From Alphaproteobacteria bacterium (GTDB lineage Bacteria > Pseudomonadota > Alphaproteobacteria > Rs-D84), in assembly GCA_017520675.1 (NCBI GenBank), contig JAFXFG010000003.1, positions 1 to 56,565 of the forward strand: 56,565 bases of DNA, read 5' to 3'. The notes beneath the pieces are model-generated. The model saw nothing but the letters and a program-made list of their open reading frames with translations, was not told the origin of the DNA and ran no database searches. Below are positions 27,474 to 50,247 of the stretch, piece by piece (the stretch's first letter is position 1; every line of letters starts with the position of its first letter). Position numbers and translations under genes: made by a program.

Positions 27474-27577
27474 AAATATAATAATTCATCTAAAAGCGGG
27501 ACGGGAATCTCATGTAGCGTCAGTACACTACGATTCCCGTCCCACTTTTATCTAAATCATTCTATTTATTTTTTTTG
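27474..27577 (+). repeat. hairpin repeat element, copy A
   Basis: 5' flank ataattcatctaaaa; arm gggacgggaatc (27498-27509); core tcatgtagcgtcagtacactac; arm gattcccgtccc (27532-27543); 3' flank ttttatctaaatcattctatttattttttt. Confidence 0.85.
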
Positions 27578-27587
27578 TGTGGTGCGT

Positions 27588-27680
27588 ATAATTCATCTAA
27601 AAACGGGGTGGGGTGGTTCATGTAGCGTTTGTACACTACACCAACCCCAATCCGTTTATCTGTACGGTTATCTTTTTGTA
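27588..27680 (+). repeat. hairpin repeat element, copy B
   Basis: Same flanks and core (tcatgtagcgtttgtacactac). Arms cggggtggggtggt / accaaccccaatccg are imperfectly complementary. Confidence 0.8.
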
Positions 27681-27690
27681 AAAAATCTGA

Positions 27691-27718
27691 TTGCAAAAGT
27701 TCTTAATTTCGGTATAAT
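27691..27718 (+). promoter_or_regulatory. sigma-70-like promoter TTGCAA-16-TATAAT
   Basis: TTGCAA at 27691-27696 and TATAAT at 27713-27718. Confidence 0.55.
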
Positions 27719-27724
27719 TCAAGT

Positions 27725-27989
27725 TGAACCGGATGGGAATCTGGTTCGGGGCTGTGCTAGGCCCATGACTTTCGGTGCAAATATGTTTAGGCGTCGTAAT
27801 CCGACAGTATTTTTCGTATTTGCACTGTATCTAAATGTCCCTGACGATATGTCGGGGGGCTGTCCGCTATGAAACAGGTGGCGTAACACCAAAGGCGGGC
27901 AGAGTCATTAAAGTCATGATTTAGCAACTCCCCGACCGTCTATGTTTCCCATAGCGGTTTTTTTAACAGAAAATAGAAGGGAGTCCTGG
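27725..27989 (+). promoter_or_regulatory. conserved structured 5' leader RNA (riboswitch/attenuator candidate), copy 1
   Basis: Repeated on the minus strand at 49296-49579. The two copies show compensatory changes in at least four helices. Ends in a terminator hairpin just before the RBS aagggag. Confidence 0.7.
27936..27964 (+). terminator. leader-internal intrinsic terminator
   Basis: ccgtctatg (27936-27944) / catagcgg (27950-27957) followed by T7 (27958-27964). Confidence 0.65.
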
Positions 27990-29216
27990 ATGAAAAGATT
28001 TTTAACAACTGGATTTTTTGGCGCAATTCTGGGGATTGTTATAGGCGGCGCGCCAGCGGATGCGTCGCTGATATCGCGCGGATTCTTGGACGAGGTCCTG
28101 ACCAGTTACGCCACCAACACTGCACTGGATTTAAAAGCAAACCAAACCGACCTAACCGCATTATCAAATAAAATCGGCACATTGCCAGAGGGGACAATTG
28201 ATATTGGAGGTATTGGTCTTAGTGAAATGTTTGGCAAAGAAAAATCGTTCCCTGTAACAATACCATCAGATTATACATTGTCAGATGCATTTCAAAATCT
28301 ATTTTATAGCGAGGGTGTTTTCCCCAGTTTTGTAGACATCGCTGAATATACCATGTACGGCGGAACTTTGTCTTCATATTGGGAAAGTATTTATGGTATT
28401 AAAACTTACAAAGGGTTATTAGAATTAACCAAAGATATCGGCACATTGCCCAGTGGGGAAATTGTTAGTTATGGTCCACCGTTAATTGAGATGTTGCAAG
28501 ACTATTCCTATCAATATCCCAAAGATTTAGCAGGGATATATGATGTTTTGTTTGGTACTGGAGAAAATATGGGGGTGCTTGAACGGTTTGCAACAAGTAC
28601 GTTATTTGGAGTACCGAATTCATTTAGTGGACTTCTTAGTATCGGTACTGTACCAGATGGCAAAAATCTTGCAGGTATGATAAGTGAAACCGATGCCAAA
28701 ATCGGCACATTGCCAAGTGGGGTTTTTCCTGTTTTTCCAGGAAATATGTTTCTCTCTGTTCTTAACCAACCATATACATACCCAACAAGTTTAGCAGAAT
28801 TAATCACTGCAATATACGGCAATGCAGAAACTGGCGTACACGGATTATTGGAAGGCATTTTTATTGGCTTTCCATATTATGATACAGATGGCGATGGTCA
28901 AAAAGAACCAGGTGTAGGCCTAATGCCAAATTTCAACCTTGCGAAGAATGCAAACAATCTTGCTACCACTGCAAATACTACTGCAACTGCGGCAAAAACT
29001 GCCGCCGATGCCAACACTGCCAAAATCGGAACTCTACCAACCGAATATGCGACAGTTGGGGCGGCGCTGACCGCGATAAAATCGGATATTGATGCAAAAA
29101 GTCTGCCCAGCACATCTGCTGATGGGCAATATGTGTTGACTGCTAAAAAAGTTGGCGAAACTATTAGTTATACTTGGGTCAAGATGGATTTGACAAATGA
29201 AGAGCAATCACAATAA
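27990..29216 (+). CDS. secreted/surface IGTLP-repeat protein
   Basis: Start at ATG 27990 (RBS aagggag). N-terminus MKRFLTTGFFGAILGIVIGGAPADA. Five IGT[LV]P modules. C-terminal block KIGTLPTEYATVGAALTAIK is shared with 48504..49295. Confidence 0.8.
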   Translation: MKRFLTTGFFGAILGIVIGGAPADASLISRGFLDEVLTSYATNTALDLKANQTDLTALSNKIGTLPEGTIDIGGIGLSEMFGKEKSFPVTIPSDYTLSDAFQNLFYSEGVFPSFVDIAEYTMYGGTLSSYWESIYGIKTYKGLLELTKDIGTLPSGEIVSYGPPLIEMLQDYSYQYPKDLAGIYDVLFGTGENMGVLERFATSTLFGVPNSFSGLLSIGTVPDGKNLAGMISETDAKIGTLPSGVFPVFPGNMFLSVLNQPYTYPTSLAELITAIYGNAETGVHGLLEGIFIGFPYYDTDGDGQKEPGVGLMPNFNLAKNANNLATTANTTATAAKTAADANTAKIGTLPTEYATVGAALTAIKSDIDAKSLPSTSADGQYVLTAKKVGETISYTWVKMDLTNEEQSQ

Positions 29217-30139: not shown

Positions 30140-30530
30140 CTAATAGCATATCTAAAGCGGATTGGGGTTGGTTCATGTAGCGTCTGTACACTACACCAAC
30201 CCCAATCCGTTTATCTATACTATTATCTTTTATTTTTTTCGCTAAGCAAGGGATGGGGTGGTTGGCTTATGTAGCGTTTGTACACTACGCCAACGGATTT
30301 TTCGCATATCTACACCATTCTAATTTATTTTTCGCTAAGCAAGGGGTGGGGTAGCGTCTGTATACTACACCAACCCCAATCCGTTTATCTATACTATTAT
30401 CTTTTATTTTTTTCGCTAAGCAAGGGGTGGGTTGGCTCATGTAGCGTCTGTACACTACGCCAACGGATTTTTCGCATATCTACTTTATTTTTTTGCTAAG
30501 CAAGGGGTGGGGACAAATTGGTTTTTTGTC
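30140..30530 (+). repeat. tandem array of about 4.5 hairpin-repeat units in two alternating subtypes
   Basis: The core tcatgtagcgtYtgtacactac (or deleted variants of it) occurs four times. cgctaagcaagg(g)gtgggg junctions lie at about 30240, 30342 and 30413, with a truncated copy (gctaagcaaggggtgggg) at about 30495. Confidence 0.85.
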
Positions 30531-46755: not shown

Positions 46756-46859
46756 TATTTGGCAAAATAAAATAGCCCTGGGTATTTTATACTTTGGGTT
46801 TAAGGGGTGAAGTGCGGGTGGACTGTACTTCGTAAGATAAATATAAAGGAAAATAAAAA

Positions 46860-47237
46860 ATGGCACGTATAGCAGGTGTTAACATTCCTTCGGAAAAACG
46901 CATTGAAATTGCGTTGCAGTATATTCACGGTATTGGGCCGGCAAAGTCGGCACAAATCTGTGCGGCTTTGAAATTAAAAGACGGTTTGCGCGCAAAAGAT
47001 TTGACAGACGAAGATGTTATCAAAATTTCTAATTATATCGAAGATAACTTTAAAGTAGAAGGCGATGTTCGTCGTGAAGTTACTATGAATATCAAACGTT
47101 TGCAAGACTTGAAAACCTATCGCGGTATTCGTCATCGTAATCGTTTGCCAGTTCGTGGTCAACGCACTCAGACAAACGCACGTACACGCAAGGGTAAGCG
47201 TGTTGTAGTGGCTGGTTCCGCAACCAAGGGTAAATAA
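46860..47237 (+). CDS. rpsM: 30S ribosomal protein S13
   Basis: [26 protein letters not shown]. Confidence 0.97.
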
Positions 47238-48483: not shown

Positions 48484-48508
48484 ATAATCCCCAATAAAGG
48501 GGATTATT
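48484..48508. terminator. bidirectional hairpin between convergent genes
   Basis: aatcccc aataaa ggggatt (48486-48505). It overlaps the stop codon of the minus-strand gene. Confidence 0.6.
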
Positions 48509-49295
48509 CATTTGTGGTTGTGGTGGTTTCGCTTTCGCGGTCAATTTTTTCCCAGCGATATGTTGCATTGTCGCCAACAATATCAACCGTCAGAACAAAT
48601 TTACCAGTTGAACCCTCGGCCTTAGGGTCTGGAATTGCAGATAGTGCGGCGGCCTTGGCATCTTCGGCGATACCCTTAATCGCGGTTAGCGCCGCCCCAA
48701 CAGTCGCATATTCAGTTGGTAATGTACCTATTTTATTAACTTCTTCAGTTAATTTTGGTAATCCGTAGACAGTTTGGGCGGTTCCAGAGAGGTTGGTCAT
48801 ATTTCCACCGTAAGAAAGTAAATACGAAAAGCCGTTTTCGTTGCTATAATTATTATATAAAGCCTCGTAATCATGAAATATTTCGTCCAATCTAATGGGC
48901 CAAAATGTATCCCCTCTTTGTTGCTTAAATAAGCGTGCCATTATGCCGGCTACCCCAGGAAATTCAGGGTCAGTATAACTTAATTTTAAAAATTCAGAAA
49001 TATCATTTGTTGGAATAGGGGTGGTTTTTTCTTGGTCATTAAAGAAAAAAATACTACTTGCATTTTCAAGTCCAGCTAAAATATCCCAATATGTTAATTC
49101 TGCTGGGGTGCCGATTATGTCTGATAATGTGGTTAAATCGCTTTGGTTTGCTTTCAAATCCAATGCGGTGGTGGTGGCATAGTTTTCCAGTGCTTCGTCC
49201 AAGAATCCGCGCGACACCAGTGCTGCATTCGCTGGCGCGCCAACCGCAAGTCCCAATATCGTGCCAAATAAACCTGTTGATAAATATTTTCTCAT
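48504..49295 (-). CDS. secreted/surface protein, shorter paralog of 27990..29216
   Basis: MRKYLSTGLFGTILGLAVGAPANAALVSRGFLDEALENYATTTALDLKANQSDL closely matches the N-terminus of the paralog, and the C-terminal block KIGTLPTEYATVGAALTAIK is identical. Confidence 0.8.
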   Translation of the reverse strand: MRKYLSTGLFGTILGLAVGAPANAALVSRGFLDEALENYATTTALDLKANQSDLTTLSDIIGTPAELTYWDILAGLENASSIFFFNDQEKTTPIPTNDISEFLKLSYTDPEFPGVAGIMARLFKQQRGDTFWPIRLDEIFHDYEALYNNYSNENGFSYLLSYGGNMTNLSGTAQTVYGLPKLTEEVNKIGTLPTEYATVGAALTAIKGIAEDAKAAALSAIPDPKAEGSTGKFVLTVDIVGDNATYRWEKIDRESETTTTTNE

Positions 49296-49579
49296 TTTAT
49301 TACTCCCGTTGTTGGTTTAAAAAAATTAACCGCTATAGGAATAGCGGTCGGGGAGTTCGTAAATCATGACTTCAATGACCCTGTCCGCCTTTGGGACAAG
49401 CCCTGTTGTATAGCGGACAGCCCCCCGACATTTCGTCAGGGATTAATCAAGATACAGTGCAAATACGGAAAACATTTGTCGGAATTACGACACATAAATA
49501 TATGTTTACATATATTTGCACCGGAAGTCATAAGGCTTACGACAGCCCCGAACCAAATTCCCACTTGGTTCAGTCTTAA
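49296..49579 (-). promoter_or_regulatory. conserved structured 5' leader RNA, copy 2
   Basis: The reverse complement aligns along its whole length with 27725-27989. Confidence 0.7.
49316..49348 (-). terminator. leader-internal intrinsic terminator (copy 2)
   Basis: Minus strand reads accgctat tcct atagcggt followed by taattttttt. Confidence 0.65.
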
Positions 49580-49608
49580 TGTTATCAAATATGTGCTGGG
49601 GGGTGCAA
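49580..49608 (-). promoter_or_regulatory. candidate promoter TTGCAC-17-ATAACA at the position equivalent to the copy-1 promoter
   Basis: Reverse complement of 49603-49608 and of 49580-49585. The -10 box is weak. Confidence 0.35.
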
Positions 49609-49638
49609 GTATAAAAAATAATTTTATCTTTTAGATAT

Positions 49639-50247
49639 TTAGGATTTGAAATATGGATTGTTGTGGGCTAGCCAGTCGATATTAGTATCCATCCCATGAC
49701 CATGTATAACACCAGTTTGAGCCGGCAGATTCATATTATAGATATTAGAAATCGATTGAAATAACATTTTTGCATCTCCACCAGGCAGATCATAGCGACC
49801 AATGTTGTCTTGGAATATTGTGTCGCCGATTATTATTACCTGTTCGTCTGGAAAGTGGTATGCAACACCGCCTGGGGTGTGGCCAGGTGTTTCGATGATA
49901 TCCATAAATAAATTTGGTAAAATTTCTGTGCGTTTGATATCTAGTGTAGTTGGGCGGTTGTCGTCCAGACTGATACTGGGCAGACCAAAATATTCCAGCA
50001 GTCCATTACCCCAGCCAACCAATCTGAAATCGCCACTGTGCAGGTACCAAGGAATATCAAAGTGGCGTGCCAGTGCAGGGGCGGCAGATATATGGTCTGG
50101 GTGGCCATGGGTTGCATATATTGCCACTGGGGTCAGGTTGCGTTCTTGTAACACGGTCAGCCAATCATTAAAGTGTCCCCAAGGGTCAAAAATAACACAT
50201 TTATTATCAACAGATACAATCACAGAATTTGTGTTCCGTGGTTGCAT
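49639..50247 (-). CDS. MBL-fold metallo-hydrolase (glyoxalase II-like)
   Basis: HGHPDH motif (ATHGHPDHISAAP). Start placed at ATG 50247 (MQPRNTNSVIVSV...), because the longer track ORF overlaps the end of ftsH. Confidence 0.75.
   Translation of the reverse strand: MQPRNTNSVIVSVDNKCVIFDPWGHFNDWLTVLQERNLTPVAIYATHGHPDHISAAPALARHFDIPWYLHSGDFRLVGWGNGLLEYFGLPSISLDDNRPTTLDIKRTEILPNLFMDIIETPGHTPGGVAYHFPDEQVIIIGDTIFQDNIGRYDLPGGDAKMLFQSISNIYNMNLPAQTGVIHGHGMDTNIDWLAHNNPYFKS

Follow-up and report, generated by a model that had tools for sequence, protein, structure and literature searches.

A multi-copy structured leader RNA with an intrinsic terminator in gut Alphaproteobacteria of the order Rs-D84

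Several described RNA systems have to be considered in connection with the element presented here. sRNA-Xcc1 (Rfam RF02221) was detected as a discrete, free-standing 88-nt RNA in Xanthomonas and is associated with mobile elements of Gamma- and Betaproteobacteria (PMC2996969). It has been located upstream of symE in integron cassettes (bioRxiv 10.1101/2025.06.18.660453) and upstream of an ORF6N gene in APSE phages (10.1101/2020.03.17.996009), and it is multi-copy in Xylella (PMC12189769). The family is annotated routinely by genome pipelines, while its mechanism is unknown. Terminator/antiterminator riboswitches and attenuators form a second group, with examples such as the c-di-GMP-I/GEMM riboswitches, which occur in many copies per genome in front of surface-related genes, and the trp leader with its 1:2 / 2:3 / 3:4 pairing logic. 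A third group consists of processive antitermination RNAs and leaders (HK022 put, Bacillus EAR, JUMPstart/ops with RfaH), which are promoter-proximal elements that precede surface-structure or accessory genes and act on termination.

We analysed a 56,565-nt stretch of DNA from an Alphaproteobacteria bacterium of the order Rs-D84 (GCA_017520675.1, contig JAFXFG010000003.1, positions 1 to 56,565), hereafter called the window. It carries two copies of a folded leader RNA of roughly 250 nt with its own promoter and a built-in terminator. The leader does not belong to any family of the RNA family database, and what switches it is unknown. Bacteria of this order (Candidatus Enterousia) are uncultured, common in human and livestock guts, and have genomes of 0.75-1 Mb with few recognisable regulators or transporters (PMC12306168).

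Two copies of the leader in the window

A preliminary description of the window, made from the sequence alone, had claimed a second copy of a leader on the minus strand, and this observation holds in our analysis. A blastn search of the window with the reverse complement of 49296-49640 found one other match, at 27725-27964 (+), with 78.4% identity over 259 columns and an E value of 6e-52, and the MAFFT alignment of the two copies runs end to end. A profile search of the window with nhmmer also found only these two copies. The features are as follows, where P numbers designate helices.

49579..49608 (-): promoter of copy 2, with -35 TTGCAC (49608-49603) and -10 TAACAT (49584-49579, 18-nt spacer) or, alternatively, ATAACA (49585-49580, 17-nt spacer)
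49550..49571 (-): P1 hairpin (GAACCAA / TTGGTTC) with the conserved GGGA loop, the probable 5′ end of the RNA
49533..49548 (-): P2a hairpin (GGGC/GCCT), the loop of which, TCGTAA (49542-49537), is the 5′ strand of the long-range helix P3
49524..49530 (-): 5′ strand of the long-range helix P4 (TGACTTC), pairing with the loop of P8
49455..49523 (-): P5 domain, in which the helix CGGTGCA/TGCACTG encloses the AT-rich palindromic insertion (49513-49492) and the GTCG/CGAC hairpin
49435..49441 (-): 5′ strand of P6, CCCTGAC, pairing with GTCGGGG; proposed anti-antiterminator
49421..49429 (-): GTCGGGGGG, the shared strand, pairing either with CCCTGAC (P6) or with CTCCCCGAC (junction-closing helix)
49381..49420 (-): P7 arm of the three-way junction, with the conserved internal loop UAUACAAC / AAAG and the inner hairpin P7a
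49363..49379 (-): P8 hairpin (GTCA/TGAT), the loop of which, GAAGTCA, is the 3′ strand of P4
49357..49362 (-): 3′ strand of P3 (TTACGA), in the junction strand between P8 and the closing helix
49347..49355 (-): CTCCCCGAC, 3′ strand of the junction-closing helix (proposed antiterminator), the last three bases of which, GAC, are also the base of the terminator stem
49319..49349 (-): intrinsic terminator, GACCGCTAT-TCCT-ATAGCGGTT followed by AATTTTTTT
48504..49307 (-): RBS GGGAG (49307-49303) and the gene that would be regulated (ATG at 49295), encoding a 263-aa protein
27691..27968 (+): copy 1 of the leader, with promoter TTGCAA-16-TATAAT at 27691-27718, RNA at 27726-27966 with all helices and terminator at 27934-27966
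27990..29216 (+): gene following copy 1, encoding a 408-aa paralogue of the protein following copy 2

The details given in the preliminary description were present. TTGCAC, a 17-nt spacer and ATAACA lie upstream of copy 2 as claimed, but in the family alignment the -10 box (consensus TATAAT) sits 7 nt before P1, which favours the register TAACAT. A consensus promoter scanner flagged neither register for copy 2, while it did flag TTGCAA-16-TATAAT for copy 1. The terminator with its T-run (49349-49318) was flagged by the scanner with 9 pairs. The AT-rich extra segment of copy 2, atatgtaaacatatatttatgt (49513-49492), lies inside the GGTGCAAATA/TATTTGCAC helix, which is our P5, and the inner GTCG/CGAC hairpin is retained in both copies. 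Copy 2 folds to -100 kcal/mol, with z = -7.0 against dinucleotide shuffles.

In both copies about 23 nt separate the U-run from the ATG of a co-oriented gene (49295-48504 (-) for copy 2). The two proteins are paralogues with 45% identity over the N-terminal ~135 aa and 47% over the C-terminal ~90 aa, and the leader DNA is therefore better conserved than the coding sequence. Both proteins have signal-peptide-like N-termini and no match in Pfam or PHROGs. The 178 protein homologues found come only from metagenomic assemblies, and the few that carry a source name are labelled 'Alphaproteobacteria bacterium' MAGs. In five of the six homologue contexts examined a recognisable leader lies upstream of the gene, and in the sixth (L006; L numbers designate loci retrieved during this analysis) only a divergent version could be traced by eye. 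One of these contexts, L003, is syntenic with copy 1, although the proteins are only 58% identical.

A large family upstream of unrelated genes

A pattern for the 3′ domain was scanned against one genome per GTDB species and returned at least 117 stretches, of which about 105 are from gut Alphaproteobacteria (Candidatus Enterousia, and ruminant, horse and human MAGs). About 10 loci in high-GC taxa (for example L041, L109, L110 and L120) were set aside as chance pattern matches. The scan gave 109 non-identical copies. This pattern fixed CCCGACCG and GATTT, a bias that is partly removed by an independent metagenome scan with a pattern from the 5′ domain only. The latter gave 74 stretches, of which 59 are full-length leaders by nhmmer, and it contributed a further 55 copies, all with the full 3′ domain. 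The 5′ and 3′ domains therefore always occur together. In total we have 164 distinct copies from uncultured gut Alphaproteobacteria, which measure 167-273 nt (median 220) from P1 to the terminator. A full-length covariance model (about 235 positions) was not built, and nhmmer and MAFFT were used instead. Copy numbers per genome are lower bounds: one MAG (RGIG3039) has at least 10 copies and another at least 9. A BLAST search of the leader against phages gave no match, and a pattern scan of viral contigs gave one stretch (L127), which was not confirmed by nhmmer and was treated as chance.

The promoter consensus TTGcaa-17-TATAAT is found at the same position in all copies, and the leader and its terminator are followed by an RBS and a start codon. 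Copies that do not precede genes had been named beforehand as the finding that would point to a mobile repeat instead of a leader. The more than 160 further copies are co-oriented with a downstream gene, and the start codon lies 40-59 nt after the conserved CCCGACCG in 79 of 97 cases; larger distances, where we inspected them, are due to an inserted REP-like hairpin. The leader is not tied to one gene family but is a multi-copy module in front of many genes, the products of which are unrelated to one another (mean column identity 4%). Of 97 downstream proteins, 77 (about 80%) have a hydrophobic, signal-peptide-like N-terminus, and most of the rest are DNA methyltransferases or glycosyltransferases. 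Pfam hits include OMP beta-barrels, autotransporters, YadA anchors and BspA repeats, and among the cytoplasmic proteins are DNA methyltransferases (N6_N4_Mtase in 4, HsdM in 2, EcoRI methylase, type III Mod) and glycosyltransferases. A phage origin of the downstream proteins was considered and rejected, as there were no PHROGs hits.

The other outcome stated in advance as counting against a leader was the lack of a shared fold beyond chance, and here too the result was in favour of a structured RNA. On an alignment of 66 sequences below 66% identity, 89.4% of the cells of the pseudoknotted fold are paired, against 76.8 ± 0.4% in shuffles, and 37 of 52 pairs have double-sided changes. The covariation score is 0.414 against 0.190 for shuffles (0 of 500 reach it) and 0.07-0.13 when the partners are slid. 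On the 109 genome-derived copies the nine highest mutual-information pairs all fall in P3 and P4, and the tenth falls in the helix that closes the three-way junction. Three or four Watson-Crick types are seen at many positions, as for column pair 37-228 (AU 48, UA 26, CG 21, GC 9), and there are hundreds of compensatory base-pair changes. G-U pairs are abundant on this strand only, so that the structure belongs to the strand transcribed towards the gene.

The helices supported are P1, a 5′-terminal hairpin present in nearly all copies and 90-92% paired with compensatory changes; P2a (GGGC/GCCC in the family), with C-G to U-A covariation at columns 31-41; P3, between the loop of P2a and the strand between P8 and the closing helix, with four Watson-Crick types; P4, which pairs with the loop of P8; the variable domain P5; the junction arm P7 with its inner hairpin P7a; the short junction hairpin P8; and the closing helix, GUCGGGGNG with CNCCCCGAC, in which the N-N pair (columns 163-235) is GU, UA, GC, AU or UG. 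P8 and most of the closing helix are nearly invariant, and part of their support therefore rests on a few divergent variants; P8 covaries in L009 (ATCG/CGAT) and in a divergent subtype (UAUA/UAUA, ACAAU/AUUGU). These helices do not share bases but cross one another, and they would form one fold with two H-type pseudoknots, the steric feasibility of which is inferred and was not computed. The fold is more complex than nested helices. The point of the preliminary description that the length difference sits in a helix interior is right: across the 164 copies the interior of P5 ranges from 3 to 63 nt, making this the hypervariable peripheral part, and the palindromic hairpin of copy 2 recurs in a subgroup (L016, L050, L115). 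Its statement that no reading frame is conserved is likewise in line with our data, as only 57 of 122 copies have an ATG in the P1 loop and the resulting ORFs are 11-85 codons long, by which a leader-peptide attenuator was rejected.

Two further conserved elements compete with this fold, namely P6 (CCCUGAC with GUCGGGG), which is 96% paired with G-C to A-U double changes, and the terminator, the bottom pairs of which use the G-A-C that ends the closing helix; P6 and the terminator are 94-96% paired with compensatory changes. Independent support comes from the divergent sister subtype (subtype B), found at L013 7741-7925, L026 2308-2644 (-), L058 7593-7907 and L085 1-317 (-). In it the shared strand GUCGGGG has become GUUGGAG or GUCAGGA, both partners have changed in concert to CUCCAAC or UCCUGAC, and P8, P3 and P4 have also changed in a compensatory way. 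A mini-variant in L001 lacks P1 and P5 but keeps P2a-P3, P4, P6, the junction and the terminator.

Other pairings were examined. The 5′ UCGGGG is complementary to CCCUGA, but this is not supported by covariation and was rejected: all 5 copies with A at column 142 have a compensating U at column 158, its P6 partner, while no U-A pair is ever seen at the alternative pairing 26-142. The helix P2 proposed by RNAalifold (5′ GGGG with CCCC) is invariant and so uninformative, and competes with the covarying P2a hairpin and with the closing helix; it is kept only as a possible feature of the terminated state. For a possible kissing contact between the P1 loop and the P5a loop (GGGA with UCC) correlated variants exist (GAGA/UCU, AGAA/UUU), but the P5 architecture differs between subtypes and we draw no conclusion on it. 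Taken together, the interpretation of the preliminary description, a structured RNA leader instead of a coding or mobile repeat, is supported.

Proposed termination switch and alternative readings

We propose that 49319-49608 (-) encodes a cis-acting 5′ leader RNA that controls the gene at 49295-48504 by conditional transcription termination. Our analysis establishes that the leader has its own sigma-70-type promoter, that it folds into the conserved structure described above, that the terminator leaves no room for another promoter before the start codon, that the 5′ strand of the closing helix, GUCGGGGNG, can pair either with the upstream CCCUGAC (P6) or with the downstream CNCCCCGAC, and that the last three bases of CNCCCCGAC are also the bottom of the terminator stem. 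The switching itself is our inference from the sequence alone. In this view P6 is the anti-antiterminator and the closing helix the antiterminator: when P6 forms, the terminator forms and a leader RNA of about 250 nt is released (OFF), while formation of the closing helix and completion of the pseudoknotted fold would sequester the base of the terminator and let RNA polymerase read into the gene (ON). An unidentified effector, which may be a small molecule, a protein or an RNA, would shift the balance. There are no expression, termination or binding data, and neither actual switching nor binding of an effector was assayed here. Nested thermodynamic models favour the terminator-plus-P6 state in 105 of 109 copies (mean -93 against -82 kcal/mol); pseudoknots are not modelled there, and we cannot show that the antiterminated state is ever populated. 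The closing helix moreover removes only the bottom 3 pairs of the terminator, and the downstream genes are not metabolically coherent, so they do not point to a ligand. We are highly confident that the element is a structured cis-acting leader, and consider the specific termination switch more likely than not.

From our data, we cannot exclude that the element is mainly a gene for a trans-acting small RNA, an enlarged relative of sRNA-Xcc1 with many paralogous copies that act on other mRNAs or titrate an RNA-binding protein, so that the position upstream of genes would be secondary. The promoter, the efficient-looking terminator, the resemblance of the 3′ domain to sRNA-Xcc1, the multiple copies as in Xylella and the terminated state as thermodynamic minimum are in line with this. 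We nevertheless consider it unlikely, since the spacing to a co-oriented start codon is fixed in most copies and the downstream gene has no other promoter, the loop and junction strand that would act as seeds in a free sRNA are paired in cis with copy-specific compensatory sequences, and the conserved competition between P6, the closing helix and the terminator has no role in a plain sRNA. The two roles are not mutually exclusive.

Slightly less likely still is a constitutive module, either a 5′ stabiliser or a put/EAR-like RNA that makes RNA polymerase terminator-resistant so that accessory surface and restriction-modification genes are transcribed efficiently. The surface proteins, envelope glycosyltransferases and restriction-modification genes resemble gene sets served by dedicated antitermination systems such as RfaH/ops, UpxY and EAR, a 5′-terminal hairpin is present in nearly all copies, and no ligand can be guessed from the genes. 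However, a conserved terminator immediately after a constitutive antiterminator, together with a conserved competing hairpin with compensatory changes, is hard to explain without switching, and no similarity to the put or EAR RNAs in Rfam was detected. A mobile or selfish repeat (MITE/REP-like), or a remnant of gene duplication without function at the RNA level, is suggested by the many copies per genome, the unrelated REP-like hairpin repeats in the window and related loci and the paralogy of the two window genes, but is effectively refuted by the covariation, the strand-specific G-U pairs, the fixed orientation and spacing, the unrelated downstream genes and the synteny of copy 1 with L003, and no terminal inverted repeats were seen around the copies whose flanks we read (neither these nor target-site duplications were searched for systematically).

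With at least 10 copies in one genome of about 0.9 Mb, the element would define a regulon of secreted and surface proteins, envelope glycosyltransferases and restriction-modification methyltransferases, and would be a major control layer for how these organisms present themselves to hosts, partners and phages. It is tempting to speculate that the leader is the aptamer and expression platform of a new riboswitch-like class, sensing a small molecule, second messenger or dedicated protein and switching on most of the secreted and surface proteome, together with restriction-modification methyltransferases, of genome-reduced gut symbionts of order Rs-D84. By extension, the widespread 'trans-acting' sRNA-Xcc1 of proteobacterial integrons, phages and islands would be the minimal version of the same sensor, a cis-regulatory element and not an sRNA. 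This reading, as that of a ligand-sensing riboswitch in general, is only a tentative possibility. In any case, the RNA is a well-defined orphan, with 164 sequences, two pseudoknots and a clear expression platform, and is ready for ligand screening and structure work.

Comparison with described systems

No Rfam 15 family reached its gathering threshold in the window, scans by E value gave only sub-threshold sRNA-Xcc1 hits and chance miRNA hits, and we found no paper linking Rs-D84 with such an RNA. The leader shares with put, EAR and JUMPstart/ops the promoter-proximal position and the kind of genes that follow, but no similarity in sequence or structure was detected, those elements do not carry their own competing hairpin and terminator, and no partner protein has been identified here.

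Functionally, the nearest analogues are terminator/antiterminator riboswitches and attenuators, especially multi-copy ones such as GEMM. The leader has the corresponding location in the 5′ UTR in sense orientation, a large conserved fold with pseudoknots supported by covariation, a closing helix that overlaps an intrinsic terminator, an upstream segment competing for the same strand as in the trp leader, and many copies per genome in front of surface-related genes. It has no match to any Rfam riboswitch or leader, no known or inferable ligand and no leader peptide, its regulon includes restriction-modification methyltransferases, and at least 10 copies in a genome of about 0.9 Mb is, we believe, unusually dense. 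What is new is thus an RNA family of a known general type, a structured attenuating leader, with a two-pseudoknot fold built around an sRNA-Xcc1-like junction, a very high copy density in tiny genomes and an unusually large regulon of secreted and surface proteins plus restriction-modification enzymes.

The 3′ three-way junction bears similarities with sRNA-Xcc1 (RF02221): a G-run/C-run closing helix, an arm carrying an AUACAA internal loop opposite an A-rich strand, and a second short hairpin followed by a U-rich junction strand. The closing helix and P7 are supported by covariation. Membership of the family fails by score, since the hits, although full length (model positions 1-87), reach only 30-44.5 bits against the gathering threshold of 53 bits. 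Copy 2 scores 32.1 bits, copy 1 has no hit at E<=10, and 8 further loci gave 9 hits at 30.5-44.5 bits, namely 8 of the 9 pattern-defined copies there plus one subtype-B copy. A BLAST search of an sRNA-Xcc1 consensus against plasmids, made to inspect genuine sRNA-Xcc1 contexts, gave no match. In the present element the junction is the 3′ third of a leader of about 220-250 nt; the promoter position predicts an RNA of about 250 nt with a conserved 150-nt 5′ extension, no transcript data being at hand, and the 5′ part pairs with the loop and the junction strand of the junction, adds the competing hairpin P6 and is followed by a separate terminator hairpin. The loci are moreover chromosomal and syntenic. 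On the other hand, both RNAs are multi-copy and lie upstream of variable accessory genes, and the contexts described for sRNA-Xcc1, upstream of symE and of an ORF6N gene, look like those of a leader. The link to sRNA-Xcc1 raises a testable question about that family.

Divergent forms of the leader and pattern matches in contigs labelled Muribaculaceae

A sister subtype of the leader, subtype B, was found in four related loci (L013, L026, L058 and L085), and a shortened form in a fifth, L001:
L013 7741-7925 (+), subtype B leader
L026 2308-2644 (-), subtype B leader
L058 7593-7907 (+), subtype B leader
L085 1-317 (-), subtype B leader
L001 2170-2400 (-), mini-variant of the leader

The architecture of subtype B is the same, but the G-run strand is GUUGGAG or GUCAGGA, the P7 interior differs (GUGAAUAU..GAAUAAG) and P8 differs as well. 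The nhmmer search built from type A misses this subtype, while one copy hits the Rfam family sRNA-Xcc1 at 36.6 bits. The mini-variant in L001 lies upstream of a PLD-like gene and is divergent from the main copy in the same locus; it lacks P1 and the P5 domain but keeps P2a-P3, P4, P6, the junction and the terminator.

The genome-scan pattern was also matched by L087 and L114, short 2.5-kb contigs in a MAG labelled Muribaculaceae, and in L114 a signal-peptide gene lies downstream. These are probably mis-binned Rs-D84 contigs rather than evidence for the family outside Alphaproteobacteria.

Repeats and insertions near the leaders and their genes

Five copies of a REP-like hairpin unit of about 49 nt were observed in the window, together with internal repeats in the gene that follows copy 1 of the leader:
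27489-27537, REP-like hairpin unit
27597-27645, REP-like hairpin unit
30152-30200, REP-like hairpin unit
30246-30294, REP-like hairpin unit
30416-30464, REP-like hairpin unit
28160-29040 (+), internal repeats in the gene after copy 1

The loop core of the hairpin units, CATGTAGCGTYWGTACACTAC, is conserved and the G-rich/C-rich arms vary, and the units flank the OMP-like genes on either side of copy 1's gene. Two of them (27489 and 27597) are preceded by TATAATTCATCTAAAA, which resembles the leader's -10 box and start, so they might be transcribed. Different palindromic (REP-like) repeats, with other core sequences, occur in the related loci L007, L026 and L070. The internal repeats in the gene after copy 1 are 264 nt (88 aa) long and are marked by ATCGGCACATTGCC, which encodes the IGTLP motif, and this motif recurs in the homologous proteins.

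In the copies with 150-220 nt between leader and ATG, an insertion of about 190 nt sits between the terminator and the RBS and contains an inverted repeat (GTCGTCATTCCG...CGGGATGACGA). This arrangement was found at L026 7190-7390 (+), with similar cases in L039, L061, L065 and L079.

Near-threshold similarities to other Rfam families

Two further elements gave Rfam hits close to, but below, the cut-off of the respective family:
L085 5164-5356, both strands, similarity to Wolbachia WsnRNA46
window 46803-46892 (+), similarity to Alpha_RBS (RF00140)

The hits to WsnRNA46 in L085 reach 58 and 50 bits against a cut-off of 65.3, and their presence on both strands indicates a long palindromic element downstream of the leader-regulated gene. 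The hit to Alpha_RBS scores 34 bits against a cut-off of 38 (E 4e-4) and overlaps the start of ORF 46860-47237; this element is probably the ribosomal alpha-operon autoregulatory leader.
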